From Catajapyx aquilonaris (Eukaryota), in contig JYFJ02001471.1 in assembly GCA_000934665.2 (NCBI GenBank), positions 1 to 64,000 of the forward strand: DNA of 64,000 bases, in the 5' to 3' direction. Both the position numbers and the translations under genes were made by a program. This document shows, piece after piece, positions 1,373-64,000 of this stretch. Within the stretch, counting starts at the first letter, position 1. Every line of letters starts with the position of its first letter. Under the pieces are notes generated by a model, which was not told the DNA's origin, searched no databases, and worked only from the letters and a program-made list of their open reading frames with translations.

Positions 1373-12818
<11,446 letters not shown>

Positions 12819-13503: not shown

Positions 13504-14631
<1,128 letters not shown>

Positions 14632-14879: not shown

Positions 14880-15300
14880 AATCGAGATGGAACATGCGGC
14901 AGGGTTGTCAGGGCGTGTTTATACTACGCAGCATTTGAAGTTGCAAGTCTGTGCGCATGCGCGTGTTATGAGGTCTGATTGCTTATTGGCTGGAATTATC
15001 ACAACTTCTTGCTGTGATTGGTGCAAGTGGCGACATTAAGTGATGTTAACACTTTCTGGCGATACTAGTCGATCTGTACCAATTCTCTAATTACATAAAT
15101 TAAATTTATATTAACTGCTATTAACTCTGATTATAATTTATGCACACTGTGACACATACATGAGGTACAAAACTGCATGAAAAACATTGCATGATGGATT
15201 AGTTGTTCCAGGTTCCGAATTGGCGCCTTTGGTCATTCTTCTCCTAGTCGACCCAACGGTGACCTGCAGCTGTCGGGAAGGGACGAAGAAAGGCTACACG
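14880..15300. promoter_or_regulatory. Putative bidirectional promoter LCMT1/POLD3
   Basis: Head-to-head genes; NRF1/Ewg-type palindrome GCGCATGCGC at 14953-14962 and inverted CCAAT boxes (ATTGG) at about 14985 and 15017. Confidence 0.55.
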
Positions 15301-41495: not shown

Positions 41496-44400
41496 CTATA
41501 GAATGTCCCTTTCCATGACCAGTTGTCGTATGTTGGTGTATTCCGGGTTGGAAGTGAAATATTCAAACATGTCCTGGAAGGACGGCCTGTCCTCGGGCTT
41601 GTATGCCCAGCACGACTCCATCACTTTGCCTGTTGACAGTGGGCAGAGGTCTGGCTTTGGCAGCCTCTGCCCACTTTCAATGAGCTCAATGACCTCGATC
41701 CCTTTCATGTCACCGTATGGTTGCTCCCCCAAGGAGAACATCTCCCACAAGGTGATTCCGTAGCTCCAGATGTCGCTGGCATGGGAGAAGGTCCCGAAGT
41801 TGACCGACTCTGGAGCATACCATTTGAGGGGCCACCGTCCTCCTTGAGAAGCCCTGTAGTACTCGCGCCCTGCTCCAAGTGCACGGGACAGCCCAAAATC
41901 GGAAATTTTGGCTTGATGGCGTGAAGACAGGAGGATGTTTCGGGCAGCCAGGTCGCGATGAACAAATCGTTCTGACTGAAGGTACAGCATTCCACATGCT
42001 ATCTGGGCAGCCCAAAGACGAAGATCCAAGGTGGGGTTAATTGAGTTTGGGTGGCCCAGAAGATAGTCCAGTAGAGAGCCCATTGGCACCACCTCTTGAA
42101 CCTGCAGGTGTATGGTATATTTAAAACTTTGACCACGTTGACTGCATTACTCCTTGCTGATCACGTGCAAATTTATCATAATCTTCATACGATATCATCT
42201 TATATGGAATATTCAAACTCCCATGCTGTAGAAATAATAACATTCCACATCATACCATCAGCAGAGGCGGTCCTTTGCATATCCCAACAAGGCTGACAAT
42301 GCAGTGGTGGTGCAGGCGTATCATGACTTTCGCCTCTTGCATGAACTCTTCTCTGCTGGTCTGCAGTTGCTCTGCCTGAAGAGTTTTCACAGCTACTTCT
42401 CTTGACTCTCCTTCGGAAGCACCTGGAGGGGTGTAGGTTGCGCGAAACACAGCTCCGAATTCACCCTCACCTAGAACCTCCCCTAACACCAATGAGTCCC
42501 GTGGGATGGAATCTGGAATAAAAAGGGCAAGTCAGCCATGCATGGTCAAGGCACAGAGTTTACATCACAGCCACACCACACTACTTACCTATATTGCTTA
42601 CTTTCACTTGCGTAGGTGATCCTGGTGATATCTTCCTGGGGAGTGGAACTGGTGGTAATGGCCTCTGCAATGTCTTCCCATTCACCTCGGGTTCCTTATT
42701 CTTGATCTTCTTCTTCTTCTTTGTTTCCTCGGGCTTAACTGGTTTTCCTAGTGTGGTGGGTAGCCCATCTGACAAAGCACTGTAGTGCACTATGACGTGC
42801 TCTAGGCTGTCCAGGTACGGTCCATCATCTATGCAGTACCGTGAACCTCTCTTCTGTATCTCAAAGTTGAAGAGATGTCCCTGGTGGAGCATGGTTAGGA
42901 CATACATGCCAGGCTTCCTAGGTGTCTGACGCACTAGGTACACTCCACCTCCGCCAGTAGCCACCCTGTGAAGGCGGTTCTGTGCTTCCTGACGATCGAT
43001 GACACCATGGTACCAATCTGATTGGTTTGCTTTTGCAGATGGTGGACAGTAACCTTCGAGAAGCTCATAACATTCAGTGTGTCCACCCTTCAGTGCTAGA
43101 TCAGAGGGCGTTTCGTCAAGAGTTGTTCGTGGACGCACTGGTGCATTTCTTGCCAACAACTTCTCTACACAATCGGTGTGCCCCCGGCTGGCTGCCTCAT
43201 GCAGGGGCACCCAACCAGTTTCAGGGTTTCTTGCTTGTGGGTTGGCACCTCCAAGGTCCACCAATATGGTAACGGCACTGGGACGGTTAGTCTGTGCAGC
43301 ATAATGCAGAGGGGTGTACCCGGCGGTGTCCCTGGCATTGACACTGGCCGCAGCCTCAATCAACTTCTTCAAAATATCATCTGTGCCAAGTTCACTTGCC
43401 AGGTGCACTGCCGTCTTCCCCTCCTGGTTCTTAGCATCAATGCTGCGGTAGCCACATTTCAGGAGCTCGCTCACAACCATGTAGTTTCCTGGAAGAATGC
43501 AAGAAAGTTCAGGCATAGTCCAATGCAATTGTTTGAAATTCCAGACTTACCACTCCTGAGTTTAAATAGCCTTGGAGTGCTTTTGGTAGGAATAGGAACA
43601 GGTCAATTATTATATGCAGTACTCCTAGTGGTGTATTTAATAAAAACTGAACTTATCTAAGTCACAGGTGATTAATTTGAGAGTATGTGAGTACATTTGG
43701 TGATGTGCTATGACTTTAGACTCCTGCTTACTCTGCAGTGAATTATACACAGCATGAATATAAATCATTGCCATGCCCCAATTCGGATATGGACAGGCAA
43801 TTTATGTGTGTATCTTGCGCACACACAGCTCCTGGTTCCTAGTCGTCAAGAGCTTGGCCCTTTTGAAAGTGACTTTTTGGACAGTGCCCCCAGCATTCTG
43901 TTGGTTTATTAACTTTTTGATATAGTGTGCCACCCTGACCAAAGCAGCCTTGGTGCAGGTGTCTACATTAAAGCCATCTTTTGCAACATAAATGCAGGCA
44001 GTAGACATTATACCAGCAACATACAAAAGTTTTGTGATTTAAGGAGTATTCCAACACATCTGGGACCATATTAGCAAATTGGTCGAAGCATCATGCTATT
44101 ATGACCCTTTCATTGCATGCAGATTTACCCAGGTTTCCATTCATTCAAGAAAGCCAAACGCTACCTTCTTTGGTGGCGCGATGCAGTAGATTTGTGCGTC
44201 CGTGCCTGCGAGAATCCGGCGGCGGTGGGTTCTTCTTGACACTCCGTCCAAGCTTGGTGATAAGTCCATGAGACGACTCCTGGTAATGCTCAATCAGAGT
44301 ATCCAGACCATGGATTATAGTCTCCTCATCTGCCAACAACCACATATTAATACCGGGGCTCCTTCCACACAGCCACACCTTGCCTGTAACATGTCACCTC

Positions 44401-44693
44401 GTATATTACCAATAGAGAAGAAGGCATCCTCCCCATGCCTGCGTATCTGGTAGTGCACGATGTCTCCCTTGTGCAGCACGCTCAGCACGTAGTCCCCCAC
44501 CGCCGAGCTGCTCTCTCGAACCAGGAACAACCCTTCCTCGTCTTCGTCTGCAATTTAAGAAGCCACAAGAGTGATTGTCACGTAATGATTGTCCGGGGAA
44601 ATGTGTCTTACGCAGGTTTTCCTTCAGGATCTGCTCCGCGGCCTCACGGGAGAGCTTCCCGTGGAACCACGCCACCGTCTCGTCCCGGCTCAT
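41496..44693 (-). CDS. shark: Tyrosine-protein kinase Shark (SH2-ankyrin-SH2-kinase), about 715 aa; exons 44693-44612, 44547-44410, 44329-44165, 43488-42589, 42512-42256, 42101-41496
   Basis: MSRDETVAWFHGKLSREAAE SH2, RRHGRTNLLHRAT and ankyrin repeats, second SH2 WYHGVIDR...IDDGPYLDSLEHVIVHY, kinase GEGEFG, VAVK, HRDLAARN, DFG, YYRASQGGRWPLKWYAPE. 2148 nt in frame. Confidence 0.96.
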
Positions 44694-44819
44694 GGTTTCC
44701 GCCTCGATCTGAAACGGGCCACGGGGCATCATGACAGCCCATTTGCAAAGAGACTAGAGCTGGCTACAGAGACAGACCAACGCAAAATGATTTTTTACCC
44801 AAGCAGTCAGCAGACATGA

Positions 44820-45292
44820 CCGGATGTGGCCATCAAGTGAAGATGAGGAAGTATCGATACGGTGTGGGGATCGAAAAAAAGTATCGATATTTCTAATTAG
44901 GTTGGGGTGCGTGAATGACAAGCGGATGTTGTGACGCCAGTTGGTGCACGTGCTAATTAGTTGTTATGATGCTCATTTTAAATGAGGTAGAGACAGGTGC
45001 AATTAGTGCCATTAGTGATGCTGGGTGTATCGATACAGGCTGAGTGTTTACACAGCCAAGTTACAGAGTTGTAGCCAATCACAACGCGATTCTGCAGCAC
45101 ACTGGCCAATCCGGAGATTCCCGCAACTGCGCAGTGAACACCAGCCGTTTTGAGTAAACGTACTATTTTAATTAGGAGCTAATTACATTTTACTGTGCGC
45201 GTTAAATTGTTATGATAAAGCGATGCAGAGCACTGGTAAGAGACGGGAAGTGACGTACCTTTTCGACGAGGATGCGATGCTCGGTTGTTTCC
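44820..45292. promoter_or_regulatory. Putative bidirectional promoter shark/Roc2 with three DRE motifs
   Basis: TATCGATA at 44852-44859, 44882-44889 and 45028-45035; CCAAT boxes at about 45076 and 45106; GGAAGTGACGT at about 45246. Confidence 0.65.
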
Positions 45293-45539
45293 ATGATGGC
45301 GGACGAGATGGGCACTTCTTCAGAGAACAACAACAACAACAACAACAACAATCCGGCCAAACCGGGTCTGGAGTCAGCAGGGGCGGCCTCCGGGGCGGCT
45401 GGTGGAGCAGGGGCAGGGGGAGAGGAGAACAACCACAAGCTGGACAAGATGTTCACCCTGAAAAAGTGGAATGCCGTGGCCATGTGGAGCTGGGACGTCG
45501 AGTGCGACACCTGTGCTATCTGCAGGGTGCAAGTCATGG
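45293..45539 (+). CDS. RNF7: RING-box protein 2 (Roc2/RBX2/SAG), first coding exon only; remainder not found in window
   Basis: [32 protein letters not shown] then donor [15 protein letters not shown] distinguishes RBX2 from RBX1. Start at ATG 45293 or 45296. Confidence 0.93.
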
Positions 45540-45825
45540 GTGAGTCACTCCCAACTGGAGGTGGGAGAACCTTTGATTGCAGCTTTTTATCTGTGTAGCC
45601 CCCATTGAACCAGTCTGAGAGAAAAACAGGTCGGGCTTAAGACCTGAACTTTGATCAAGTGGCTTACACACATTTGCAGCAGGAAGATGCATGCTATAGG
45701 GATGGATCATGTTGCAGTAAATGCTGGATGACAGTTCAAGACATTCTGCTGCCTGCATGTGTTCATGATATTGCTGTGCAAGCTTGGTTATTATCAGATG
45801 TAGTCAACAAGTAATGAGCCGTACA

Positions 45826-46494
45826 TATGTTGTGGAAAAACTGTGTAACCGACTATAACGCTGGCTGGCAGCGATAACCGTAAGAGCTTAGAGAAAATTA
45901 TGCGCATGTGCACGTTCAGCTAGAGGAAGCAGGGGTCACATTATGTGATCGAAAAGGAAGCAACCCGCCGAAAGCACTGTCCAGTCAATAAAAAATGGGC
46001 TGTAGGCTAGATCAATGTAATATTTAACTTTTTCCGAAAGTATTGCCAGTGCCGATTTAGGTATTTATCCCACTGAGACACTTGGTGTACAATGGCCTGC
46101 TCATGGAAGTCCTTGGGTTGTTCTTGGAACCACATCCAAACTTTCTCCACTTCATCATCCATCTGCAATCTGCAGGCAATATGCAAGCTTTCAGTTCACC
46201 GAAAACATGAAAGTAATAGGGGAACAGGTTGGTACTGTAGTGGACGGATGTCAGAGTACTTCCACTTCAATTTATGCACAAGATCTTTGATGAAATTTTC
46301 TGTATGGGGGCGGGCATTATCATGGCATTCTCGCATGCAGGGATTGTGCTTGGACGGTGCTTTCGGCAGGTAGCTTCCTTTTTGATCATGTAATGTAACG
46401 CCTGCTTCTTGGCGCACATGCACATAATTTTCTTTAAGGTTTATCCTTGCCAATCTGTATTATTGTCTGTTCCATAGTTTTTTTTTTTTACAAT
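45826..46494 (-). mobile_element. Decayed mariner-derived element with long imperfect inverted arms and transposase remnant
   Basis: Arms GAAAATTATGCGCATGTGC...AAAAGGAAGCAACCCGCCGAAAGCAC versus GTGCTTTCGGCAGGTAGCTTCCTTTT...GCACATGCACATAATTTTC; minus-strand HDNARPH motif in ORF 46196-46453. Confidence 0.8.
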
Positions 46495-46917
46495 AAATGC
46501 AGCTTGTTTTTTATTGACTGCACCTAATACAAGTCATGTGACATTGATTTTTGGGTGTTGGTCTAAGAGCCCTGAATCACATACTGTTGGCTGTCAATCC
46601 AAAATTGCAATGGAAGTTGGATCGTTAGAATGGTTATGCGCTGCAAATCCATCTTTGATTGGTGTGAATTACATGGTATTGCCCAAAACTTATACTTTGC
46701 GTGCAGGCTATGATAAAGCTCATTTAGGGTGGGTTGTACTGTACAATACTGTGCTGGACATATTAGCAGTCCCTTTTNGGGGGGGGGGCTATCAAAAAGT
46801 ACAGTGGATTACATAAATGCTTGGCCCTACAGGCAAAATTAATGCTTACCATTACCAAAGCCACCTGCAATGGGGTTATATTGAGATATGTCTGCCTGAG
46901 TGTTGCTGCTGTATATA

Positions 46918-47468
46918 CAGTAAAACTTCCGTAAGTCGATAGAAGATTCGAGTTAGAGAAGTTTTGAATTTTTAAGCACATACAACTCCATAAGGAAGCC
47001 TACCTTTATATCCAGCAACGAAAGGGGTTCAAAACTTACAAATAACTGTTACTATCACACTGCAATGTTCCTCATTGTTTTGTTGAAAAAACTTCGTTAT
47101 GGACATTTGCCTACTCTTAGATCAGCCCTCACTCTAAAGGATTCAATATTGTCACAATCATGTCAAACACTTCTTTCGATAGACGGAGATCAGGAAGGAG
47201 CCTTTCTGTACATGTGGCCTACTCTCCACCCTTCGGCTGGGAAATGAGAATTTTTTTTGTACTTGCCAACATGAACTTTGACTTAGGGAGACTGAAAATG
47301 CATCAATATCCCATGGTAAGGCCCTGCCTGCACTTCGAGTTATGGAGAACTTCGAGTTATAGAAACTTGAGTTAGGGAAGTTTATTTCCTATTATTTTAC
47401 ATTGTGACCAACCAAGGTCATAATTATCTTCGACTTATAGAAAAGTTCGACTTATAGAAGTTTTACTC
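46918..47468. mobile_element. pogo/Tigger-type MITE (copy 2 of the 6890-7357 family, inverted)
   Basis: TA|CAGTAAAACTTC...GAAGTTTTACTC; internal CCTACCTTTATATCCAGC and AAGGATTCAATATTGTCACAATC are reverse complements of copy 1. Confidence 0.85.
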
Positions 47469-48201
47469 ATCTGTTTGTGACAGGGTGTTGGCTTTTGTAT
47501 AAATGTTCGTATGGAAAGGAACTCCAGTACTTGTAAATGACAGGGGTGAACCGGTGGTGAATGGGTTTAAAATCATATTCATAGAGGCAGCTCTCACCCA
47601 AGAAACACCTTATCTGAATACCACCAAGTCTGGACACCAAACTGCAATAACCGAGGGTAATTTGAGGCTCAGCTGGTGGAGTTGTCATGCCTTGTGCATG
47701 TAATTTCTGAGTTACTGTGTGCTAAATGCATGACAACTCCACGTCTTACTGAGTTACTTATCCCAATTGCGTTATCCATTGGAGTGAGTTGCATGCAGGT
47801 AAGGCTGTGCGTGAAGTCTGCCATTGAGCAGAACATGAAGTACTGTAAGGTAAAAAGTGTGGCAAGTTCATACGACATAGATAGCTTAATTTTAAAATGC
47901 CTTCCAATCATCAAGTTGGTGTGTCATAATGCATCAAATCTTCCTGCCATGGTTGCTGTAAGAAAGGTGTACTGTACTCTCGATTATCCGTGCTAATGAA
48001 TGCATGGTGTGCCCGGAAAAATAGCAAAACATGGATAATCCGAACTTGGTCCTAGATACGGTAAAAATGAGCTATTTCACAGACTGTTTTAAATGAACTA
48101 TTGCATAATTATACTCTATGCCACTTTAAATCAAGTTTAATCAAAATAATAAAACTTATCATTCATTTTTAGTTTTTCTTCTGGAAAAAGTTTGCTATAT
48201 T

Positions 48202-48495
48202 CAGTGGCGTAATGGGGGGGGGGGGGCTGCCCTCCCCAGAAGCCTTGCACTCTCCCCCTAAAAATGACAGTTGCATAAATTGCATAAATGATTGTGTAGT
48301 TTTTATGGCTTCATTTACTTGTGACGCAATTTTTGTACAGCATGAGTTTATACTGTACATAAATAGATAATTTCAGTATATTTCATTTCCTCCCAAAAAT
48401 ACTTTATGATAGGGATAGGCTATCTCACAGGAAGTGGCCATGCTGCCTCCACCCCTCCCCACCCCACCCAGAAAATGTGTGTGGTTATGCCACTG
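48202..48495. mobile_element. hAT-type MITE with 8-bp TSD
   Basis: CAGTGGCGTAA...TTATGCCACTG termini flanked by GCTATATT and GTTATATT (one mismatch). Confidence 0.75.
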
Positions 48496-48671
48496 GTTAT
48501 ATTTCTTTGTTTGTGAGACATACTGACATTCTTCAATATTTCAAACTTTGGTTTTTGTTGATGAATGTTAATCTGCGCCCAGAAGATCGGGAATACAGTG
48601 TAAGAAAAAAAGTGGAAATTTTTATGCACAATTTAAGCATGATATAAATATTATTGAGCCTCACTTTTTAA

Positions 48672-49114
48672 CCCTTAACTACGTAGGTGGAGCCTGAGAG
48701 GCTCCAAGCACTATTTAAACGCATGTAACTTTTACATTGAATTTTATTTTCCCCTGTCCTTCCGTGACTTTGTCAGAAAAACCTTCCTAAGCATGAAAAG
48801 GAAAGAAAAAAATTTTAGTCCCTATTCTTTGGTTTTAAAAAATTCGTAACGAGGAACAGGTCCCTCCTGGAACAGCTCAGGCTCTATATCTCGTAGGTGA
48901 AGCCTGAGCGGCTCAAACATGATGTAACCTTTTAATTTAAAAATTTTCCCTGTCTGAATATGCTGACTCAGCGTGTGATTTTTACGTATTTGGAAGCCTA
49001 AGGATCTGAACTGCACTTTCTGTATGGGAAAAGTCCAATATAACAATTTAGTTGATAAGCAGAAATTTAAATATACCGTTGGAGCCTCATAGGCTCCACC
49101 TACGTAGTTAAGGG
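48672..49114. mobile_element. piggyBac-type MITE with TTAA TSD
   Basis: TTAA|CCCTTAACTACGTAGGTGGAGCCT...AGGCTCCACCTACGTAGTTAAGGG|TTAA, perfect 24-bp TIR extending into an internal GGAGCCT/AGGCTCC palindrome. Confidence 0.9.
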
Positions 49115-49256
49115 TTAATGCAATGTTATAGAGAACAACTTCCATTAAAAATTGTGCCAAGATCCTGGCATGGATCCTTTGTGTTAATGCCATGTCATTA
49201 TTGTGGGTTGCTTTTATGCCAGAGATTACTCATTATAACTTAGTTTTACAGTTGTT

Positions 49257-50037
49257 CAGTTGACTCTGGATATAACAGCCTCGGTTATAACGGACTTTCG
49301 GTTATAACTAAACAGACTCGAAAGGCCAGTCCCGCCATACTTCCATAAGGTCCTGTGCAATCTTACTCCTGATATAACATACTCATTTGTACAATACCTC
49401 AGCTATAACAGACAATTTTTTGGCCCCTTGGAGGGAAAATACACTGTTTTTTATTATATAAATTCCTTTCCCTTGTGCAGGATGGCAAAAAATAATGGAG
49501 GGGGGTGATTTTCATATCTGTCACTGATCTAAGCCACTCAAAGTCATTCTTTTTCTGGGATATGTGGCAAAAAGGAGACGGCAGAAGAAAATTATATATT
49601 TTTTAAAATCATGCCTAATTTACGGGGGTGCGAATTTTGCCTTTTTGTCAATAGTTTCATTAATAAACGCAGTAGTGTGCATTATAAGCACATGGAGAGC
49701 AGAAAACTTGTGTATTCGTTGATTGGTTTGGTTTATTTAGAAGAAGCCAAAGCAACTAGGACTATCTGGCTAAGAGAAGACGCAAAGGTGGGACAGATGG
49801 AGAGAGAATCGAAGAGAAAAAAGAATTGTGCAAAGATTGAATTTTTAAAAGTTATGTCTTTGACTTGAATATATCAAATGCTGATGGCCGTAACGACATA
49901 AAAACTGTAAACAATGTTTTTAAAATATAACTCAAGGGGTGTATTTGTTGAAAAATGGCGATTTGGCTATAACAGACCTCTGTTATAGCATACTTTTTCC
50001 ATGGTCCCTTGAAAGCTGTTATATCCGGAGTCAATTG
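49257..50037. mobile_element. Second pogo/Tigger-type MITE family
   Basis: CAGTTGACTCTGGATATAACAGC...GCTGTTATATCCGGAGTCAATTG|TA with repeated GTTATAAC/CTATAAC subterminal motifs. Confidence 0.78.
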
Positions 50038-50489
50038 TATGAGGAATTACAAAAAATTACAGGTGTACAATTGGTGAAACTACAACAGTTTTGATTTTTT
50101 TGACAAGAAGTGATAATTGCAGAAGGCATATCTGCCTACAGTACACCCTGAAAGTTAGCTACAAGTAGAATATTAAATACCTCCATGGAAAACTATAAAA
50201 AAATAGTGCAGTGTACTGTAAGCAACAAATAAGTAATTTCTTCTTGATTTCATAATTTTGTGGGGCTCTCTACTGCTATTCCATGCACTGCGTATTATTG
50301 CACAATGAATGAACTAATTATGTAAGTCAGTGCACATGGTAAGTGACAACTGCGTAACATAATTCACACTGAAAGTCATCTGTTGACATCTGGCAGCTTC
50401 TCAAAGTTTTTACTCTAGGTGCAGGTCACAAGGTGATAAGATTACTTGGCTGATTGTTAGGGTTGTGTGCAATCTTCCAAAGGTGAAAG

Positions 50490-51052
50490 TACTAGGGGCT
50501 TTCGGAAAGTCTTGACGCATTATTTTTTTGCCACAAATACAGGGCCCATGCAGGTTGGCAGATAGGCACACATTATCAAGAGATTCCTCCTGGAGCCGAA
50601 TGCACTGGCATTATCGGTATGTCAGCCTCTCCAAGCCCTCCAGGAACCAAATTTTGGAGGTGCGTCACACACAACTGCTTCCTGTTCAACACTGTCCTCG
50701 AAATGGTGTCAGGGAAGAGGTTTTTTCATGGATCCGAATAGGTGAAAGTCACTGGGGGCCAAGCCAGGGTGAGTACTGTAGGTGTGGAAGCATCCAAACC
50801 CAGATCCATGAAAAAAAACCCTTTGCCGATGCCATTTCAAGTATATTGTTGACAGTTGTTGACTGTGAGCAGTTTTCTGGGAGTGTGTGCTCTGCACCAC
50901 CAAAAAGTGGTTCCTGGAGGGCCTGGAGAGGTTGTCATACCCATGACTTCTGTGCATTTTGGTCCAGGAGTGTTCTATCGATAATGTGTGCCTATCTGCT
51001 GACCTGCACAGGCCCTGTGGCAAAAAAATAAAGACTTTGAATGCCCCTCGTA
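50490..51052 (-). mobile_element. mariner-derived non-autonomous element with about 180-bp inverted arms and transposase remnant
   Basis: TACTAGGGG...CCCCTCGTA termini; arms GCAGATAGGCACACATTATC/GATAATGTGTGCCTATCTGC; minus-strand PGLAPSDFHLFGSMKK resembles the mariner YSPDLAPSDFHLF motif. Confidence 0.85.
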
Positions 51053-53909
51053 GATGAAGTTACTTATGTTATGTGCAAGGAAGGGTTTTCAAAGTTTATT
51101 ATCACTGTTACTTTATCCTGTTGGATATGCTACAGTGTGTTGATGCTCTGCCTTCAAGTGGAGAGCAATGCATGGCTTAGAATTTTAACCCAGAGTGTGG
51201 TACAGAACAATGCATTGTGAACCAGGTGTCACATGACTGAACATCCACTGTATCACTGCAATTCATATTATTATTTGTATGAATGACTAGCGTTATTGCT
51301 GAGGAGTAATTTATTACTTCAATCAGCAAGATTGTATTTCCTGATAACCATTTTAGCCACCATTTAAGTGACTAATGGTCTTTCTTGGACAAACCCCATT
51401 ACAGAATTATTTATAGGGACCTACTCGATTTTGAATCAATTATAACACATAAAAGGAGAAAATGAAGCAATAAGAAGTTCACAGCATCGTAAAGTCTGTC
51501 CAACGAGTGTTTGACTTCATTGCTAAATTAAATCAATGAAGAGGTCCCAAGAAAAGTTATTAAACAAGAATAATTCATGTCAGTCCCTTATATGTTCAGG
51601 CACAGTGTATAAAACTATGAAACTGTGCCAACTGTTGCAATTTTTTGTTTTCTAGAAAACACAGGTCAAGGTTGATTAGGTGACTGACAGGTTCCAAAAC
51701 CTGTCCACACAGATATTGAAACAGACCGAAATGTCATCGACCCTGCACACCCTACAGTTTGGCTCCAAAACATTGATAAATGTTTGTGATATTATCATTT
51801 GTACTTGGTATCACTATGCCACTATACTGTATGTTCAACTCGTACATACCAAGGGGCATAGGGCTGTCTTATAATCCTTTATTCAGTAAGTAATAATTTA
51901 ATTTCAAAAGGAGGAAAAGGCTGGCACCATTCTTAGGCATTCCTGAGTGATTAGTGTCACCTGAGGTGGCCAAGAATAGTACAGCAAATACAACCCACAG
52001 GTCTCACCACACAGAATTCTAATGAACGAGTCAATCACTTTCTTAGAATGAAGAGTGACCATTAGGCAGTGCAAGGCCAACCACCCTGTAGCTTCGTGTA
52101 TGACTAATAAAGTAATGCCGCCCAGTACTGACCCAAGTTAGTTTGCCTCATTTGGTTTTTTGATGGATTAAATTTTTAAATGTTAACTAATGCATGAAAC
52201 ATATTTTATATGACTGAGTAATTGTTGTTGGTACTTACCTTTGTCGACCATTTTTATATGGCTGAAATTGTGAATGTACAACAATATTTGCAGTGTTTGT
52301 CACGTGTTAGAGTTGTTTGCATGAGGCAAAGTAAACAAGTGAATGTGCCTGTTTGTAAGTGATTCATGAAAATGGCAGTGCTACAGACACATTTTCCCTT
52401 CAGCAGGTGTCAATGCCCTGTGTGCTGTTACTTTTACCGGGCCAGAACATTATTATGCAAAAACATTGGTGTGCATAGTATCAGATAGTATGTAGTGAAC
52501 CGTGAGTTAGAATTTACTTCCGATGCAATATATAAATATCCTGCGGGATTACGCGAATTGAGTCACATGCAGGTTGAATGAATGAACTAGGGTATTACAG
52601 AAATAACTATGATAAGTATGACTTACGAGGTGTTTGTGGTGGATATTTAGGAAGAAACATGGTGGAAGTGTTACCTTTGCTGCCACTGGCCGGAGGAGGT
52701 CCACCTTCTGAATTTTGGGCTGCTGCAAGGAGCATACTTCTCCCTCACCTGCCCGGGCTACACTTCAATAGAGGAAAAAACTTGAAGGTCTGCTCCCAAG
52801 GAACCCCAAGACGGCTTTACAAACTGCCTATTTTCCTTGGGGCAAGGTCGCTTCCTTTAGTCATGGCAGGTGTGACTCACTCCTTGGCAGGAGGGGGGAA
52901 AAAAACATTCATGCTGTTGGGTTAGGAATTCCTGAAGGAGTTTATGGACCTCAAATGAAACAAGCAAACTTTGGAGAAAATATTTTCATCAAGCTTAGTT
53001 TAATTGCTTTATGGTTCATCCCTGTAGTGTCCTCAAAGGACAACTTTCATGGGGAAACATAATGTAAACTCCAAAACGATATTTTTACATTTTGTTTTTC
53101 CGACCATACACACACGCTTATTGTTTCACTCAAACTGTTATTCATAAAAATGCCATACAATAACTTACAAGTTCACTGTGACCAAGGTCACACGGAAATG
53201 TCTCTTCTTCACTTCGGTCGACTAAAACTTTCATACTTGACACACTCATAGTCCCCGTAACATAACTTGTTCGTCTCAGTAACGTACCCTGCACATATTG
53301 GGTTTGGAGATTTTTTTAAACGTTTAATGCAGCAATTGTGCTTGATGAAACCGTTTATACTGTACAGTCGCGAGTTTTGGAAAGGCATTAATAAGCCTCC
53401 ATCGATGAACTGAGTCGACTCAACGTGTAACTATAATATGCTTATAATTTTTAGAGTATGCTTGGCAGCATAATATGGCAGCGCAACAATGTTTACCATA
53501 CAGAGCAGTAGCCAGCACTGCCTGTACGAGCAGATTTAGAAATTCAATCAATTTGTCTACCAAAAATATTATTTACAACAGTTCGTATCGATTGCACCAC
53601 AGAACAAATAACTACTACCCGACTCTGGTTCCACTGTGTAAACAGTTGGAAGTAAGGGATACAGGCCCTCATCCATATGTGGAGCACCCTGGGCACGGAC
53701 AAATGTTTTTTACTCCAAGAGATGCATCTACAAAAGAAACGCTGCACAATAATGGAGCCCGTTACCCCGACGTTGAAGTACATTTGCCCTCAGCGGTCAT
53801 CAACCACGCCAAAATGAGAAAAGGCATCCGGCTCGGTCCTTTTTGCCACATGTTCCTGAGTGAACACACCATTCCCAGATCTGAATCACATTGTAGATAA
53901 GTACTCTTC

Positions 53910-56900
53910 TTAGAGAGAGTTGGGCAAAGGCTTGAGATTGGCAATGGAACTGACACGACGGAACGGCCTCCCTGTGAGATTCTTCTCAATGTCGTCGAGA
54001 CTCTTGCCTCTCGTCTCCGGGACGCAGAAGATGACGAAGAAGAGTCCTACCAGGCAAATCCCGGCAAAGAGCCAGAAGGCTCCGTGGATCCCAATCGAAT
54101 GGGAAATGTCCGTGAAGGTCTTGGTGACAATGAAGGTGCAGGACCAGTTGAAAGCGGTGGCGAAGGCTGCTGCAGCGCCTCTGATCTTTCCAGGGAACAC
54201 CTCACCCATCATCAGCCAGGGGATGGGACCGAATCCGAGCGAGAAGGCCACCGCGAATACCATGAAGCTGGCCAGAGGAAGCCAGCCGTACTCGGACACG
54301 TCGTGGCCTCCTTCCTTCATGTAGAAGAAGGTGCCGAGAATACTGAGACTGAGGATCATGAACACGTCCGAGATGTAGAGGAGGATCTTGCGGCCGAGGC
54401 GGTCGATCAGGCAGTTGGCGATGAAGGTTGCGGCGAAGTTGACCACGCCGACGATGATGGTGCATAAGTTGCTGTCGATGGTGCTGCCAGCAGCGTTGAA
54501 GATGGATACGGTGTAGAAGATGACGGCGTTGATGCCGCTCAGCTGCTGGAAGAACATGAGACCCAAGGACTGCGCCATAGGTTTGGTGTACTGGCGGTTG
54601 AACAGGTCTCGGAGCTTGGTGGCGTGCTTGCGTGATCGCATATGGGTGTTCTCGATTTCTTGCATCTCGCTGGTGATGTCGGTGCTCTTTCCTCGAAGCC
54701 ACTGCAGGGCGTTTTTAGCCTGCATTGTTTTGTCTGTGGAAAGAGAAGTTGAAAGCTGCGTAAGTTGATGCTCAAGTTGTAAAACTTACGTGCCAATAAC
54801 ATCACTTTTAGAGAAACTATATTAACTTCTTACCCTTTGAGATGTACCATCTTGGTGTTTCTGGAATCAGGCACATGCAGACGATGAATGGAACGGGAAG
54901 GCATGCACCCAAAATGGCCAGGTCGGACCAGTTGAGGTAACTGCCGGCGCAGAAACCCAGAAGGACTCCTAAGAAGAGATAATACGTCAGAATCTGCAAA
55001 AACTGCGACAAAGCAGGTCATCATACCTATATTTCCGATTGTTGTAGGCAGGAGACCCAGGGTTCCTCGTACTTCTGGCTGCACTGTTTCAGCTAGGTAC
55101 ACAGGCAAAGACAGGGATGCAATTCCAACACAGAACCCTCCAATGGCTCGTCCAGCATATATCATCCACACGTTCTGGGCGAATGCAATCAGTAACCATG
55201 CTGGCGAAAGGATAACAGAGTTATCATTTGATGTAATCGATTAGCATCAATACAGATATATTTGATATTGGTACTTACACAGCACGAACGGCAATCCAGT
55301 TCCCAAAATGGTGTGCTTTCTGCCGAGATGTTCGATAAAGGTGCCACCAAGAATGCCTCCCAAGAGTGCACTCAAAGGCATGAGACTTCCAATCCAGGAT
55401 GCCTGCCAAGGGAGAGTTCAAATTAAATGGGTGCATTCTGAGCTTCAATTTTACATTTCGTAGTCGATAATGATTGGCCCTCATTTGAATGTTAATTTGA
55501 AAGCACGAGCTTGTTACAAAATGGATATCAAGCTGTCAACAGCAGCGTCATGTTTTGTGACGTCGTAACTCATAAGCAAATTTTACCAGGAGCCAAGTAA
55601 ATTGGCTGCATATAATTTTACTGTAGTTACGATTTGGATTAGAAGAATACGTTGAAAGCATTGTTTATGAACGAACCTGTTCATCATCGATGTAAATTCC
55701 GCTACCTTCCTCTTGCATGGACGCAATGGCCGGTGACGTGTAGGATGACATGAAACCGACGATCATAGAGCCCAAAGATACGCTCAGAGAAGCGATGACC
55801 TAGAAAGGAATATTGGGCAATATTAGTGACCCATATACGTCCTAATTTTTAACGAGGATTTTCAGATAGGACCGAGGACTATTGATCAAGAGTGTACTTT
55901 GTGAAGCAACGCTGGATATTTGATAAAATTAATGCAATCTGTTGGGGAGGCAAGGGTCATACACTGTCGGAAACCAGCCTCTGCCATCACGTAGGCCAGC
56001 GATATTTCTATTGGCAAGCTGTCTGTATTTTCCATGGCATGGTGCGTAACTTGGAACAGAGGGGTTGCTGTGTCACATGTGCAATGGATGGTCTCATTGA
56101 TAACACATTGGAATAATATCGGCGATGTAACTTGATATGACGAGATGTGTAAACAAGGTCAATAATTTTTGCGGTTACACAAGGTTAAGGATATAATTTC
56201 AACGAACATTCGTGATTTATCCGCGATTATAGGCTAGTAAACATGTGTTGAGCTTGCGGGGAATGCTAAACTACGCTAAACTACAAAGTGATCTTGAAAA
56301 AGAAATGATTGTTGGTACAGTATAATGTGTGCATTATACTGTCTAGGGTGCTTTGATTTTGACAGGGCATTAAAGGACCACAAAAATTAAGGATTACAAA
56401 AATGATATAAGGAGCTGGAAAAAATGTGACAAAATTGCTGGGTTTTGCAATACCAAAACCAGACGTGACAAAACATGGGTTTCACTTTTTCGTGTTAGTA
56501 TTTTTACGTATGTACTATATCGCTCAAAAAGATAGAGACGATTGGCATTTGATTCAAGTGCAAGTTGCACTTGAGTCAAATGCAAAATCGTCTCTATCTT
56601 TTTGGGCGATATAATACAACTTCCTAAAAATTGTGACGGTCGGAGGAAGAGATCCTTTCTTGGATACTCATTTTAGTACCGTAATGCAAACAATTCTGAC
56701 ACTTTCTATGGGGCTTTGCAACTACATAGATCTTTCACGGGATGACCAATATATTATTCAAAGACCTTAATGTAATGTTTAAAAACTGATATGGCATATT
56801 TCAGGGAATAATTATTATTCTGATCAGGAAACTGGAATATGCTTGTTGCATAACCGAAAGGATGAATGTTGACTGTGCATTCTGCGACTTCCCTTGTTCT

Positions 56901-58907
56901 CGCCATGTTTCTAGCGTGGTCCGTACTACCGAACAAACTGTAGCTATGCACATAGCACCAAATTGCGTTTCATGTATTTTGTGCGAAAGTTGTAAACACG
57001 TGATATGAGCGATTCAGAGCTAAATGTGATACTGCGGCCTATTTACGCCCCTTACTCGACATGTGGTCACACAACCTACATTATATACGAACTGTTAAGC
57101 AATTCCATAAGGCGCAATATTTTGTGAGAGTCTCTATTGGGACCAAATGCGCTTACCTGCGACAAAGTACATTTCGGTCTCTGAGCTTCGGTCCCTGGGA
57201 TCTGGAGGTCAACATGGGTATCCGCTCGAAGCAGCATGTTGATGGACACACTCTGATTCGACCACCCTATACGAAACGATCTCCTCGCGAGCACTCTGGC
57301 ACATTGGCGATCGCAACTCGTTTTATTCTATCACCACTCTCAGCGGATTGGCCGATGAGCCTTGGTGACGCGGAATCATTTCAGTGATAACAGAGGAACA
57401 GTGGGATGGGCAATGAGTGACAACGACCGGATTGATGGGCAGGGGTGCTGCGCGGGCGAACTCTTGACATTTTGTGGCGGCGACTTTTATCCGTAGAGGT
57501 TTCCAGGGGAGAACATGTTTACGTCGTTGTTGTTTACTCCTGAGCATGTGACGGAGTAGTGTTTCGGGGATAGAGATGAACGAGGATGACGTGCTTATTT
57601 TTTGGGGGCGCATATATGCGCAGATTGTTACGACATACGTTGGGGATGGGCATGGTTTGTGGTTCTTTGCGGAAATCAGGGATTCACAGTCTGTGATTGG
57701 CGGGGTGTAGGATGTTCGTGTAGGGTGGAAGTATGGGTATAGAAGTGATGACGGTGGATCTTGTATCCCTTGGCCTCTGTTTGCCAGCAGAAGGGACCCC
57801 CGTCATTTTACATCACGAATCTGCCCTTGGTGTGACTCGTGACCTATGATCAGACCCTTTCAAGATAGCATAACATAACCTCTGAAACGTGGAATCTGGT
57901 TGCAATGTGAAGGCGGTTTTTATGCATACCTATTAATGGAGAATATAAGCCAATACATCATTTACATGTATTTATAGCTGGTCCTTCGACTTGTACTCAG
58001 CTCGGTTAGATGTGATTTTTTTTTCTTGGGGGGGGGGGGGGGATGTTGCCACCCAATCAGTGTATACTGCAGAACGTGCAAGGCAATAAAAATAATAGTC
58101 TAGCGAATGTCTGAATGGCGAAACCCATTTTTAGAACAGTTCAAGATGGAGTCTCTGATTAGAACTGAACCCAAGTAAGGCATCATGATTCATGATGTAT
58201 TTGTGATAACAGGTAGGAAATTGGCGGCAGTTATGACGTTTCTAGATTTCCCCATGTCTATAGATTGCCTTCATGGTTGCACAGTGTAGCATAAACCGCC
58301 AACGTGGTAGAAAACTGATTTTGCGACATTTATAACCCATTTGTGAGTCACCTGACGTTTTTGTAACATGACTGCTTGGTGTAGGGGAAATTAGGCTATC
58401 GTTTGTAGATCTATCCCTTTAGCGATCTCTTTCTACTTTCAAAACGCTGGCGCTGTGAAGTGTCTAAAAGTAAGAACGTACCAACATGATGCAATGTAGC
58501 CCCCCAAAAAAGGTGAGATTACGTAATGGCGGTGACAGGCTGTACGTTTGTTGATCCCCATCGTGCCAGCCCCGTATCCAAATTTATGACTGAAGGCCAG
58601 TAACCTAATTTGGATTTTGATATCCCATGCCACATGCCGCTGAACTTCTGACATTCTGGGAGCCACTCTGTCTTACCTGTGGGCCGATGTTCTTGACGCG
58701 AAACTCCGGTTTCACCAATTCCGAGTCACTGTCTTCCTCAGGGTTGACTGGCGTAACCACAGTGTGGACCAGTGGGTCCAAATCCTGGAGTTCTTCTGTT
58801 AGAACCGGGTATAAGGGCTTGGGATGTCCTTTGTCATCCACGAAGCCATTGCTGATCGGCACGTTCTCCTCGTCCATAACTTCGGCTGTGTCTTTATGCG
58901 GTCCCAT
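53910..58907 (-). CDS. Tret1: Facilitated trehalose transporter Tret1, isoform A about 536 aa; exons 58907-58677, 55799-55677, 55402-55279, 55200-55027, 54968-54834, 54733-53910
   Basis: Sugar-porter motifs [88 protein letters not shown] and the Tret1-type tail [12 protein letters not shown]. The 77-codon first exon ends in phase-0 CAG|GTAAGA; it is less certain than the shared exons. Confidence 0.9.
56516..56613. repeat. Near-perfect 98-nt palindrome
   Basis: TATATCGCTCAAAAAGATAGAGACGATT...TCAAGTGCAA-G-TTGCACTTGA...AATCGTCTCTATCTTTTTGGGCGATATA. Confidence 0.9.
57157..57237 (-). CDS. Tret1: Tret1 alternative first coding exon B ([27 protein letters not shown]), isoform about 486 aa
   Basis: 27 codons ending CAG|GTAAGC in phase 0; resembles the recalled short insect Tret1 N-terminus MKILMRADTH...CTFSQ. 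Confidence 0.88.
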
Positions 58908-61900
58908 GTTGTTTGGCCCTCATCCACGATCACTTGTACTCCTGAGGACGCACCTTATGATGACACCTCCACGTGTTTACCGCATTCTGGCAAGGTCTGG
59001 TCGCCTGAAATAGAATATCGTACAGTAAGTAGCATGTCCTGTGAATCCGGAAGTATTTCCTGTCGTAAATTTTGATAGCGCAATGTACGATATGGCGAAA
59101 ATGAGGCATTGTGTGAAGTGACTATTACGTGATTTCGGGTTTATATCTAGAGATGGTGTTGGGTTGATAGGGGGAAGCGATGGGCCAATTAATGCACTTT
59201 GATCAGGTATCCTGGATATTACGTGTAGACTATATAGGTGGTGGTCATCTGGTAATCATGTGTACGTCACACATGCTCAATGGGGAATGAAAGTAACTGG
59301 GACACGAATTTCAGAGAAAGTCCATAATTTGATATGATACAACGGGCTCTTGTCATTACGTACAGTAGGTGTTGTGTTTCAGTTCCTGTCTCATTTATTC
59401 ATGTTCCTCAATTGTCACCCATCTGATGAAATGTGGGATTGGCATGTACTTTATTGGCTGAATATGAGCAAAATCCCCCCCCCCCCCCCNCCCCTGACAT
59501 AACCATCGTTAACTGGTAGCCAAATGAGGAAGCGACTGTCGGAACATTGCAGTCGGACCAGTACCTTCTATTCCCCACGTCCTGTGCCAAGTTCAGTGCC
59601 GCCTTTCATGTGAATCACGCATAATTAAAAGGCGTTGCTCGACACGTCAAGTTCGACGTGCTGTCTGACTGCTAATCTACACAATTTTTCTTTAAAAGAC
59701 TGCGTCGTACCTACTTTAAATTTTTTTCAGTAACAGGTGTTGGCAAAGTAAGTTGCGTTTAAAAGCACAAACATGTTTGTTCAATGTGCGCAATTGTTTT
59801 TTATCGCTCGCCTTGAACATGGGTGGGAAACCAGGGAATGGCCGTCGCCGTTTCATTTTCGCCAAGGTTGCGTAACGTTGCAAACTGCATGCATTTTGTC
59901 GTGCCATTTCCTGAGCGTCCAACCTTTGACCAGTACACACACTGAAACGAGATACGCGCGAAATGGTAAGCAACAAAGAATCTGAAATTTTCAACCGGAT
60001 GCGACCGGTTATAAGCGGTTCGCGTTCGTCGATTAATTTGACGTCACCTTGGGCAGAAGTCAGTTCGCGATGATCTTTTGCTCTGAGGGCATGTGGGTTC
60101 AACGAGCAGGTTTCCGAACTGGATTAGGCAGATAATGTATGATAAGTGTCCAGTTGCAACTGTATTGTTCAGCTGGGGCTATTGCATTATTGTGGGTTAC
60201 GGATGTAAATCAGGCAATGCACGTAAGATGTTCACGTGTCAGGTTTTTTTTGGGGAAGCTTGATTCATGGCCAAGGAAGTCGTCCGTTCACCTCGTGAGA
60301 AATATTCGGCGTGTAAAAAAAAAATGGCGTAAGGTTACGACCGTTCACGATAAGATCAGTTTGATATCAGTGGGCAATAGCAGATACAGTAAGTCGGGCA
60401 TAAATTTTTATATCCGGTGCACATTGCTCCTGATAGAATATCTGGTGTTTGCAAGTTGCTGTGTAGCCTACCCAAAAATTAATGTACTAAATATAATTAA
60501 TATTTGTTAGAGAAAAAGTTGGAGCACGTTTTTTGCTGTAATTATCTAATGTGGATATGCAGTGTGCAAAGTTGTAAATGCTTATTTAGTTAATCGCATA
60601 TTAGTTGGATCCTTGAGCTCGTGCCCTATATCGCGAGATGAGCAGGAAATTAAAAGGAGAAGTAGAAAAATATGTTGAACAACAGTTTAATAGCTTGAAG
60701 TGCATGGCCTTCGCATGAACTCTCAGTACACACATTATCGGGGTTGATATTATGGCAGACTGGTACGACTGTCGCCAGCGGCTGTCCCTGTCCGTTTCGC
60801 CAATCGGGTGGCCATAAGTTAATCACATAATCAGGTTGAATGCAGGTATTGCATGCTAATTACGGGCTGATTGCGCACTTTTACATGATTTGTGAGACGT
60901 CTGAAGGGCAGTTGTGAGGATGCAGTTTCTAAGGCGTATCATTGACGCATGAATCGACGTTTTTACATGTTTACTGCGTGTTGCGGGTTGCATAATTCGG
61001 AGTGACGTGAAAATAGGTTGTTATAGGCTTGTTGGCGATGAAGCGGATTTTCTCTGCATGGAGGGAAGTTACGGGGATTCAGGAAACAAAGATACCTAAT
61101 TGGAAGTTGTATGTTAATGGCAGATATAAGTCATGTAGTCCAGGAAGTACAACAGGTTATTCTCTGTGACTTATGATCCCGCGATAAATGGGTCAGTTGG
61201 AATTGTGATTAAAGATCAGTTCGATTACTAGTCAGATAAGTTTTTTTTAAAGGCGGTGACATAAGCCATTTCGGACTCGTTAATAGAGTGGGTGGGTGGG
61301 TGGGGGAAATCAAGGGCGTTCACTCGATACAATCATGCCACTCTGGTCATTTACACCGGTGTCTTTCGTTAATGTCAAATAACCATCGCGGACCTGTAAC
61401 AATAGCTTGCCGCACCTGAAGTAGTGTCAGGCAGCTCGGTTCGTTGACGTGTATCACCGTTTATGCGGTCTAATCGTGACCCTGTACTTTCAGTACAAGG
61501 GCAGTGAGATATCAGTTGTCACCTTGGATACATTTTTATTCATAGCGTGCACAATTATTTAAGTCCATTCAAAAGCCAGAATTTTGCAGGCTGCAAAAAT
61601 GCGCGACGTCAAATTTGGCTCCGGGAAAGATTACTGGAATCAGAGGTGAATCACCATGCACGCTGTGGGCTCATGGGGCACTACTATGCACGAGGAAAAG
61701 GTTGTCGACACGTGCCTGTCATTTGTGGGTACCCTAATGCATACTGATGCATTAGGCTCCGATTTGCATGCCAATTCTTTAATATCCTGTTTGAGGAAAC
61801 TGAGAAAAGTGACATTTTCGCGGACATGAATCGAGAGTAACGACGTACGTTAATACGTAGTACACAAAATGGTATTTATGAACGCATGGTGTTGCATGGC

Positions 61901-64000
61901 AAATGGGCACATTGTTTTAACAGGTAACCTTCAGAATCGCATGCAATGAGTAAAATTGATCACATGCACATTTGTTTCGAATATGACTGAACGTCAGCTA
62001 ATGGCATATTTAGAAAATGGGTCAGGATAACCTCCTCAAACCTGGGCTTGTGTCGTCTCTTGCTGAAAAACCTGGAACATAATGTTAGCTATTTGCTCCT
62101 ATTTGACTTAAAACGACTCGCACAATGCACAGTAGTAGACAAACACAAATCAACTTTGCTAGTAACACATTTATTGGTATTGGTATAAATTAATTTACAA
62201 ATAGTGATTTCACTCAATATGTAAGCTCAATGAAATGTGATACTTTCAACGAAGTTAATTATATATTTCAGTCTACTCGTTGCACCTTCACTTGTAATGC
62301 CACACCACAATTATTGTACCCGTGGTCTTCACACCTTCGCCATCAAATTGAGTCCGATTGGTTCATTTCTGCAGGACCACGACACTTCTTGCTCTTACCA
62401 ATCGCGATGCTACAAGCTGACCTCAGGAGTTAATGCGCCAAGCCACTGACTTGCAGGTCTCTAAACTTCTGGGAGGGAAATTCTTACACGAGGCGTCTGG
62501 TCGAGTCCTTTATAAGCAACACCCCCAACCCAGCCTGACTTTCCCCTCGACGTACCCACGCTGCCTTTTGTCTTAACAGCAGGTAGTGAAGCTGTAGAAA
62601 GAGCCGGCAACTGCGGATTTTTTTGCGTCATAGTGTTCCCGCCCATTGGGTACAATAATAACCTCGGGCTCTTTCCTGCTGGAGATATGTTTGTTATATC
62701 GCAGGGTGGCGTAAAATACCCTTTGTTAAGACATGGCTGCTGCATGTGCTTGAAGGATGGCTATCACCAATGCCTCATAGCGGGTGTTATGTCATAGTTA
62801 TAGCACTCTATTCCCGGAAGCTAAATATGTTGATATAGTGCGGAGGAGATGCGGTATTGTGCCCCCAGGAGAAATGAGTCAGCTAGACAGGTTCAGGTCG
62901 ATAATATTCATGGCGCCACTTTAACATTATTAAATGATATTATGCGATAGTTATGTCTTCATTGGCAGTATTTCATGAAAGCTAATAAGCATGTTTGTAT
63001 GTTTGCGCTTAATTAAGTCTGTGATATTGAAGATTCGAATAGTGGTTTATCAAAATCCGTCCCTGGCCCCCTATCAGATATGCCAGTTTCAACAGCAAAA
63101 GGGTTTAAAAACACAGATAATGCCGTCTTGGCATTGTGATAATGCCAGTGCAGTTATCATTGAGGTGGAGTAGTTGAGGGACGTTAACACGATTATTATG
63201 TAATAATATTGGCACCTAGGTATTTCAAGTTAAGTGGCACTTTTGATAAAAAATATTGGATCATTGTGTTATGTCGGGTATCAGCCACAACTATGCCGAT
63301 GAAAAATAACAATAAATGGACATTCGGACCAATTATTGGGGGTACTCCTTTGGTGCCTTTCCACTACCTACAAAGTTTCAGGGACACACCCAAATACACA
63401 CTACTGACCCTGCGTGTTTTTGGCATTCACTTGCTCCGGCCCTACTGTTGGAGCCGTTTGAAGTGTATATCAGGACTTGGACATCTAATTGGGATAAGAA
63501 GTAGGATACACTGATAATAGACCTGCACACTACCGATATTTCGTCAGCCGGAGATGGCGTGTACTTTGCACCTTCGCATCCCGCACAAAACTTGGGACCA
63601 CCCGACGTACATCGAATAGCGGTGTGCCCTAGAATGCGGGTAATCCAAGTGTTACGTATATTACGTAACATTTGGATTACCCGCATCGACGCAACCGCGC
63701 TAACCACAATGCCGCAATTCCGGATACAGGTGGGCGTTAATATCTGAATTCACATTGCGAATATTTGACACCAAATATGTATAGAATAAGAGGTGACCTA
63801 CCGGGGTGCCCTGACCGATCCGTACCGGCGGTTGAGCAGCCCCGACGCCAGTGCAGTGCACCGAAGGTGTGCTCGTGCCACCTAATATAGGCTGTGGCGC
63901 CGGCGCCCTTGCAAGAATTGCGCCAATCGATCCTTCAGCTCTCGCCAGGCCACCAGCGCACCACGTGCACACATGTGGTGGGGTCCCTCAACCCCACCGT

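Follow-up and report, generated by a model that had tools for sequence, protein, structure and literature searches.

Evidence for a Tret1 transporter gene nested antisense within a large Roc2 intron in the hexapod Catajapyx aquilonaris

We analysed 64,000 nucleotides of the Catajapyx aquilonaris genome (GenBank assembly GCA_000934665.2, contig JYFJ02001471.1, positions 1 to 64,000 of the forward strand), a stretch referred to below as the window. From 45293 on it holds the first coding exon of Roc2 (also RNF7 or Rbx2), the gene for RING-box protein 2, and beyond this, on the opposite strand, Tret1, the gene for a facilitated trehalose transporter. The nesting of Tret1 in the Roc2 intron at this locus is strongly supported, because the exons are defined by spliced contigs and the second Roc2 exon is absent from the window. 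Taken with the published Drosophila melanogaster locus and with gene order in other species, the results make it very probable that the 5' half of Roc2 hosts a single-copy, antisense Tret1 wholly within its intron, that this is the same nest as in the fly, and that it was inherited across the hexapods.

Roc2 and Tret1 at the locus

The first coding exon of Roc2 (Table 1), translated as MMADEMG..., starts at an ATG at 45293 or 45296, with an additional in-frame ATG at 45272, and encodes a poly-asparagine run, the conserved cullin-binding strand and the first cysteine pair of the RING. The nine asparagines in the variable N-terminus are the product of an (AAC)9 repeat at 45320-45346 on the forward strand. 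Five full-length Rbx2 proteins, searched with tblastn against both strands of the whole window, matched the exon at an E value of 1.7e-23. A protein search with exon 1 among 5.8 billion proteins returned 1,062 matches at E ≤ 0.001, and the names among the best 120 of these are mostly "RING-box protein 2", from insects, a springtail, a spider and a shark. Identity to proteins of that name ranges from 76 to 100%, and the conserved 30 residues of the exon are 100% identical to full-length Rbx2 proteins. The N-terminal strand and the first zinc ligands are of the Rbx2 type, not the Rbx1 type. In the fly, Roc2 is known to bind Cul5 and to act as an E3 ligase subunit (PMC2500221).

Transcript evidence came from contigs of four sequencing runs, aligned to 44500-64000 with 45315-45358 skipped as a repeat. 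Run X24, a run of unrecorded kind that holds 0.61 of the sampled exon 1 words, was the informative one; no run recorded as RNA is listed with exon 1, and we infer from its spliced contigs that X24 is RNA-derived. Run X1 gave no alignment in the interval, and runs X6 and X22 aligned only to a short repeat, at around 58.0 and 59.5 kb. Matches of runs with a small share of exon 1 words probably come from the (AAC)9 repeat or from the conserved core. Spliced forms of both Roc2 and Tret1 are present in X24.

For Roc2, letters 1-239 of X24 record 3 (780 nucleotides, forward strand) correspond to 45301-45539 with no mismatches, and the alignment stops exactly at 45539, which indicates that the donor is in use. 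The exon ends in a split codon (G|..), so that the intron is in phase 1 and the RING is divided after ...CAICRVQVM. The remaining 541 nucleotides of the record have no placement in 44500-64000 among the rows listed. No joint from 45539 is among the joints listed for the same interval, where far weaker joints do appear; with neither another piece nor such a joint listed, the 541 nucleotides must come from elsewhere. A preliminary description made from the letters of the window had placed the end of exon 1 at QVM with a strong donor at 45540, and the exon end and the GTGAGT that follows it agree with this. It had also proposed a search for junction reads from 45539: the contig does show splicing out at that position, while the exon to which it is joined was not placed in 44500-64000.

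The second half of the RING, which in a complete RING-H2 domain (zf-rbx1, PF12678) bears the C-terminal ligands ..WGECNHSFH..CPLCQ, was not found in the window by any of three approaches. With the five full-length Rbx2 proteins as tblastn queries, the best match to the C-terminal half anywhere on either strand lies on the minus strand at 24.3 kb with an E value of 0.062. A hidden Markov model (HMM) of the C-terminal half, built from alignment A1, in which invariant RING cysteines and histidines lie on either side of the split, reached a best E value of 0.12 against 3,873 six-frame window segments of at least 8 residues each. Three diagnostic RING motifs have no occurrence in these six-frame segments. 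The earlier failure to find this half up to 64000 is thus confirmed by tblastn and HMM, and the absence extends to the other ~45 kb of the window. The same two methods find no Roc2 exon 2 in 45540-53900, the interval in which, according to the preliminary description, such an exon would have told against the nesting. Because there is no second RING half anywhere in the window, the intron measures at least 18,461 nucleotides (64000-45539). Exon 2 would then lie downstream on the same scaffold, and the Roc2 pre-mRNA would have to cross at least 18.5 kb, including the whole antisense Tret1 unit.

One could suppose that 45293-45539 is a degenerate or truncated copy of Roc2, spliced to a 3' exon that encodes no RING, and that a functional Roc2 lies elsewhere. 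The 541-nucleotide remainder of record 3 would allow this, as would the lack of any Pfam family for exon 1 alone, although the latter is expected of half a RING. Against it stand the complete identity of the conserved 30 residues to full-length Rbx2, an intact open reading frame (ORF), and a donor that fits the consensus and lies at the conserved position. With a depth of 18.7, the contig is also comparable to that of Tret1 (41.6), with the proviso that depth is a poor measure of level and that contigs reveal no transcript starts, ends or levels. We regard a degenerate copy as barely credible and treat the exon as the start of the functional Roc2 gene.

Tret1 is a single minus-strand gene of seven exons at 52990-62427, with six introns that all have GT..AG borders. 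It is covered by X24 record 4 (2,657 nucleotides), which aligns in seven blocks separated by six skips, each reading CT..AC on the forward strand and hence GT..AG on the minus strand. After the exon borders were set by the "cut +k" joint shifts, the exons total exactly 2,657 nucleotides. The ORF comprises 536 codons, from the ATG at 58907 to a stop at 53910-53912, and all coding exons lie within 45540-64000, as the preliminary description had read them, antisense within the Roc2 intron. The outer coordinates, 62427 and 52990, mark the limits of the contig rather than mapped transcript ends.

The identity of the gene was assessed by domain, similarity and phylogeny. The family Sugar_tr (PF00083) was recognized at an E value of 5.7e-59 on the last exon and at 1.3e-10 and 5.8e-3 on earlier exons. 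A protein search with the last exon gave 1,537 matches at E ≤ 1e-20, the best being a 539-residue protein, P0123, at 87-88% identity. Below it, at 60-70%, come entries bearing the name facilitated trehalose transporter Tret1, which belong to many orders of insects and to two springtails. Long tandem "Tret1-like" paralogues, in contrast, reach merely 39-47% identity to the window protein. In a maximum-likelihood tree for which eight half-proteins from four of these tandem paralogues served as the root, the window protein falls inside a 32-row Tret1 clade with support of 100/100, and together with P0123 it is sister to three springtail rows (95/90). In an unrooted tree drawn on Collembola, the window protein and P0123 branch separately from Collembola and do not belong to a 36-row clade that holds all named winged-insect rows (Shimodaira-Hasegawa-like approximate likelihood ratio test, 99). 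Clade membership and identity mark the window gene as an orthologue of Tret1, not a Tret1-like paralogue. On the strength of this one gene, the window would come from a hexapod outside the winged insects and close to the springtails; a protein search with ACADVL, another gene of the window, gave no named relative above 76% identity, its matches being spread over insects, crustaceans and molluscs. Trehalose transport is a predicted function of the protein, taken from the family name; the Tret1 entry in a published table cites Kikawada 2007 and Kanamori 2010 (PMC4231875 Table 6).

Tret1 probably has two alternative first coding exons here. In addition to the long-isoform exon in the contig, a 27-codon exon (MLLRADTHV...) is predicted by homology at an internal position. 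It matches the N-terminus of the 490-residue short Tret1 of a midge (P0127) at a tblastn E value of 4e-4, and it ends in CAG|GTAAGC in phase 0, as does the long-isoform exon. X24 contigs do not cover 57157-57237, which is uninformative either way. Among the protein matches listed, pairs of long and short Tret1 isoforms occur in mosquitoes and flies, and this two-start design seems to be shared with them. Near the 5' end, X24 record 7 (249 nucleotides, depth 4.2), at 62179-62427 on the minus strand, reads across the donor of the 5' untranslated exon without splicing. It represents an unspliced form or else an alternative first exon of greater length.

Table 1. Positions of Roc2, Tret1 and other features in the 64,000-nucleotide window (UTR, untranslated region; CDS, coding sequence)
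Feature	Position	Strand	Basis or remark
Roc2/RNF7 (RING-box protein 2) first coding exon	45293..45539	+	translation, tblastn, X24 contig
Roc2 phase-1 splice donor (GTGAGT) following ...QVM + G	45540..45545	+	sequence, contig alignment end
Roc2 intron, part inside the window (acceptor and exon 2 outside)	45540..64000	+	tblastn, HMM, contig
Tret1 exon 1, 5' UTR, at least 29 nucleotides	62399..62427	-	joint 59003->62398 (cut +1); 62427 is the contig end
Tret1 exon 2, 5' UTR and first coding exon of long isoform (ATG 58907)	58677..59004	-	contig, homology
Predicted alternative first coding exon of short Tret1 isoform, 27 codons	57157..57237	-	homology only
Tret1 exon 3, first transmembrane region	55677..55799	-	contig, homology
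Tret1 exon 4	55279..55402	-	contig
Tret1 exon 5	55027..55200	-	contig
Tret1 exon 6	54834..54968	-	contig joints, GT..AG borders
Tret1 exon 7, CDS 54733-53913, stop 53912-53910, 3' UTR to at least 52990	52990..54733	-	contig, Pfam
Repeat-rich intron stretch	46450..51060	.	many short X24 contigs, 90-95% likeness, depth up to ~190 per bin
Surp, CID and cwf21 domains	10209-12617	+	Pfam on ORFs
Leucine carboxyl methyltransferase	13770-14423	-	Pfam on ORFs
tRNA-Ser(GCT)	18731-18802	-	ARAGORN/Rfam scans
VWC domain	32726-33403	+	Pfam on ORFs
SCARNA8 (Rfam RF00286)	39734-39870	+	bit score 59.2 (gathering score 53), E 7e-9
Tyrosine kinase with ankyrin repeats and SH2 domain	41499-43546	-	Pfam on ORFs

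The pair in other hexapods and at the fly locus

The layout described above is closely similar to that of D. melanogaster, where Reynolds et al. 2008 describe an intron of more than 25 kb in Roc2 that harbours the oppositely transcribed genes CG8234 and CG30035 (PMC2500221). CG30035 is Tret1-1 and CG8234 is Tret1-2 (PMC4231875 Table 6), so the fly arrangement cited by the preliminary description is found in print. In the fly, and very probably in the window, the coding sequence of Roc2 is split by one huge intron with antisense transporter genes or a single such gene inside it. The differences are that the fly has two tandem Tret1 copies and the window one, the latter being the usual insect state (PMC13419077); and that the fly intron exceeds 25 kb, against at least 18.5 kb in the window with an end beyond it. 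For fly Roc2, a small intron ahead of the first coding exon is described in addition. Among the hits examined, our literature search found no paper that names Roc2 or RING-box protein 2 together with Tret1, and the fly description uses CG numbers. A 2026 survey of Tret1 in Molecular Biology and Evolution contains, in its available portions and leaving synteny figure S3 aside, no mention of RING-box, Roc2, RNF7 or Rbx2 (PMC13419077).

Gene order was examined in other species through identifiers, on the assumption that accession and locus-tag numbers follow genome order, as is the usual convention. Rbx2 and Tret1 identifiers are consecutive in all four species in which both were paired. These are the springtail Orchesella cincta (Rbx2 ODM90713.1, 63 residues and exon 1 only, and Tret1 ODM90714.1, both on a 35,539-bp contig), the wasp Ampulex compressa (KM043_004282/KAG7201531.1 and KM043_004283/KAG7201532.1, both on a 12,629,125-bp contig), the wasp Microctonus aethiopoides (Rbx2 PV325_000070, with Tret1 PV325_000069 and a fragment, PV325_000068, all on a 482,968-bp contig) and the mosquito Anopheles gambiae (Rbx2 AGAP005562 and Tret1 AGAP005563, which bear consecutive AGAP numbers). 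AGAP005562 is named "RING-box protein 2" in PMC11412053 (Table 5). No species was found that has both identifiers with non-consecutive numbers.

The Rbx2 gene models themselves carry a trace of the same intron. Among the best 120 of the 1,062 matches, 115 lack the C-terminal half of the RING and five are full-length. After QVM, 102 of the 120 continue with G and no C-terminal half, four with A and three with D; the search motif was unmatched in six. A glycine at this place points to read-through of a G|GT donor and thus, on the evidence of the protein ends, to a putative intron at the same position. The truncated models on megabase contigs fit an exon 2 that is too distant to be joined; those on short contigs carry little information. 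It appears that annotators truncate Rbx2 systematically because another gene occupies its intron.

Taken together, the Roc2-Tret1 pair is probably as old as the hexapods. The link back to a hexapod ancestor follows from the position of the window Tret1 near the springtails with the fly at the other end. Springtails and flies separated several hundred million years ago. The proposal in the preliminary description that the nested pair is ancient and conserved, which intermediate lineages should then share, is supported for adjacency, which is seen in the springtail, the two wasps and Anopheles and is accompanied by the Tret1 tree; nesting and strand were not seen in those four.

An arrangement in which the two genes are neighbours without being nested was also weighed. 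Mis-assembly, a broken scaffold or an inversion would in that case have put exon 2 elsewhere, and would make the intron of more than 18 kb an artefact of the window. Exon 2 was indeed not observed, and seven single Ns are present in the window, two of them in the intron. The contig, however, splices from 45539 to sequence that is absent from 44500-64000, and the C-terminal half is missing from the window's remaining ~45 kb as well. Exactly this layout is present at the fly locus (PMC2500221), and exon-1-only Rbx2 models adjoin Tret1 in three independently assembled genomes. We consider mere adjacency very improbable and retain the nested arrangement.

Wider scans for the pair added little. In a metagenome scan with exon 1, at least six loci were listed and Tret1 was in none of them; five are fungal or protist Rbx1-like genes, with merely 41-57% identity to Rbx2, and one is an animal contig of 1.2 kb with exon 1 only. 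Prokaryote genome contigs scanned for contaminating host DNA gave 80 pattern matches, none of which was confirmed. The protein families of the pair also have vertebrate members, and the RING-box protein 2 of a shark is 100% identical over the exon 1 core. The vertebrate genes RNF7/SAG and SLC2A8 (GLUT8) belong to the same families as Roc2 and Tret1 and are, to our knowledge, unlinked. SLC2A8 is listed as the human homologue of Tret1 (PMC4231875 Table 6).

Other features of the intron and the window

No gene other than Tret1 is recognisable in the 18.5 kb of intron that fall within the window. From 57 ORFs of at least 75 residues starting after 45300, Tret1 exon ORFs, ORFs overlapping them and ORFs containing N were set aside, and the 39 that were left (46021-63987) matched no Pfam family. 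Rfam and ARAGORN found nothing after 45293. Within the intron, non-coding stretches of about 7.4 kb and 3.4 kb lie beside Tret1 or inside it. The stretch at 46.4-51.1 kb is repeat debris. Within it, similar peptides on opposite strands and a contig joint 50610->50933 between opposite strands delineate an inverted duplication at 50516-51059, which is probably a palindromic transposon remnant. Mariner-like transposase remnants were considered as a filling of the intron on the basis of motifs only and were rejected, with no Pfam family at E ≤ 0.001.

The isolated single Ns of the window are at 1121, 18615, 21667, 22111, 29521, 46778 and 59490. The two in the intron (46778 and 59490) adjoin G or C homopolymer runs, and the translations there read XGGG.

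Upstream of Roc2, Pfam was run on 150 of the 165 ORFs of at least 75 residues starting before 45300; six in 1060-29716 and nine in 44190-45636 were omitted. The gene at 10209-12617 is presumably U2SURP-like. The serine tRNA lies within the span of a forward-strand gene with domains of DNA polymerase delta subunit 3 (CDC27/POLD3) at 15181-15870 and 19436-19663, and is thus another small nested gene. SCARNA8 is situated between ORFs with ACADVL/ACAD9 domains (37834-39707 and onward) and is probably an intron-hosted small Cajal body-specific RNA. The tyrosine kinase at 41499-43546, which we take to have a Shark-like layout, is head to head with Roc2, with less than 2 kb between its last recognised ORF and the start of Roc2, and the two genes may share a promoter region.

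Retention and meaning of the nest

Long-lived nests of this kind are known from other insect genes. The TipE cluster, as described by Li, Waterhouse and Zdobnov 2011, resides in a host-gene intron in an association that is hundreds of millions of years old, and both structural and functional constraints are discussed for it (PMC3240667). That nesting is reported to have arisen after the crustacean split and to have been lost in beetle and silk moth, and it involves a cluster of related channel subunits, in contrast to the single transporter gene here (PMC3240667). In D. melanogaster, 2mit is another coding gene that lies antisense in a host intron, namely intron 11 of timeless2 (PMC3786989); these genes are unrelated to Roc2 and Tret1.

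We propose that the pair has been kept chiefly for a structural reason, namely that such a nest would be hard to undo. Since exon 1 contains only the first cysteine pair of the RING, any rearrangement with a single intronic breakpoint would sever the two halves of Roc2. For Tret1 to escape would take a less frequent event, for instance duplication or retroposition. A structural argument has likewise been made for the nested TipE cluster (PMC3240667). Each gene would have its own promoter and regulation, with the 5' exon or exons of Tret1 itself placed inside the intron.

The preliminary description had instead taken the conservation of the nest as a hint of regulatory constraint. In that case Tret1 enhancers might fill the Roc2 intron and reduce Roc2 to a bystander within a regulatory block, or Roc2 transcription antisense to the transporter might tune it. 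Several observations are in keeping with such coupling: the two genes have stayed neighbours in five hexapod lineages, when overlapping pairs are reported to be extensively rearranged even among close species (PMC3689595); the intron has room in its ~7.4 kb and ~3.4 kb of non-coding sequence around and within Tret1; and a single data set contains spliced Roc2 as well as spliced Tret1, although contigs cannot reveal co-expression in the same cell. In the fly, a P-element insertion in the large Roc2 intron leaves no detectable Roc2 mRNA or protein, and expression of CG8234 and CG30035 was not reduced by reverse transcription PCR in the same insertion (PMC2500221). This is evidence that the transporters do not depend strongly on transcription of Roc2, and the hint of regulatory constraint is without support here. 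We judge regulatory coupling unlikely as the reason for retention, and a purely structural constraint would account for it equally well.

A few points weigh against a structurally maintained, hexapod-wide nest. Roc2 exon 2 and its acceptor were never observed directly, and the kind of run X24 is unrecorded, its origin in RNA being deduced from splicing. The four other species give the neighbourhood and not the strand or the nesting, and the placement near springtails depends on a single protein. In addition, Roc2 null flies are viable, with female fecundity slightly down (PMC2500221), and selection against breakage of Roc2 may thus be weaker than the structural argument needs. Even so, we hold that a single-copy Tret1 very probably lies within the Roc2 intron in the arrangement known from the fly.

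It would be of greater consequence if the nest were under functional selection throughout the hexapods, from springtails and the lineage of the window to flies, with a subunit of the Cul5 ligase coupled to the main trehalose transporter by Roc2 transcription across antisense Tret1 or by common enhancers in the intron. Roc2 and Tret1 would then form a regulatory unit rather than a frozen accident, an outcome that we think quite improbable. The conserved gene order is old but ordinary and is unsurprising to a specialist. The locus adds a hexapod from outside the insect grade to a nested pair described in print so far only for D. melanogaster, and knowledge of the layout lets annotators join the two Roc2 exons. 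The finding overturns nothing; as a long-lived nested pair, Roc2 and Tret1 may offer a test of structural against regulatory explanations of microsynteny.

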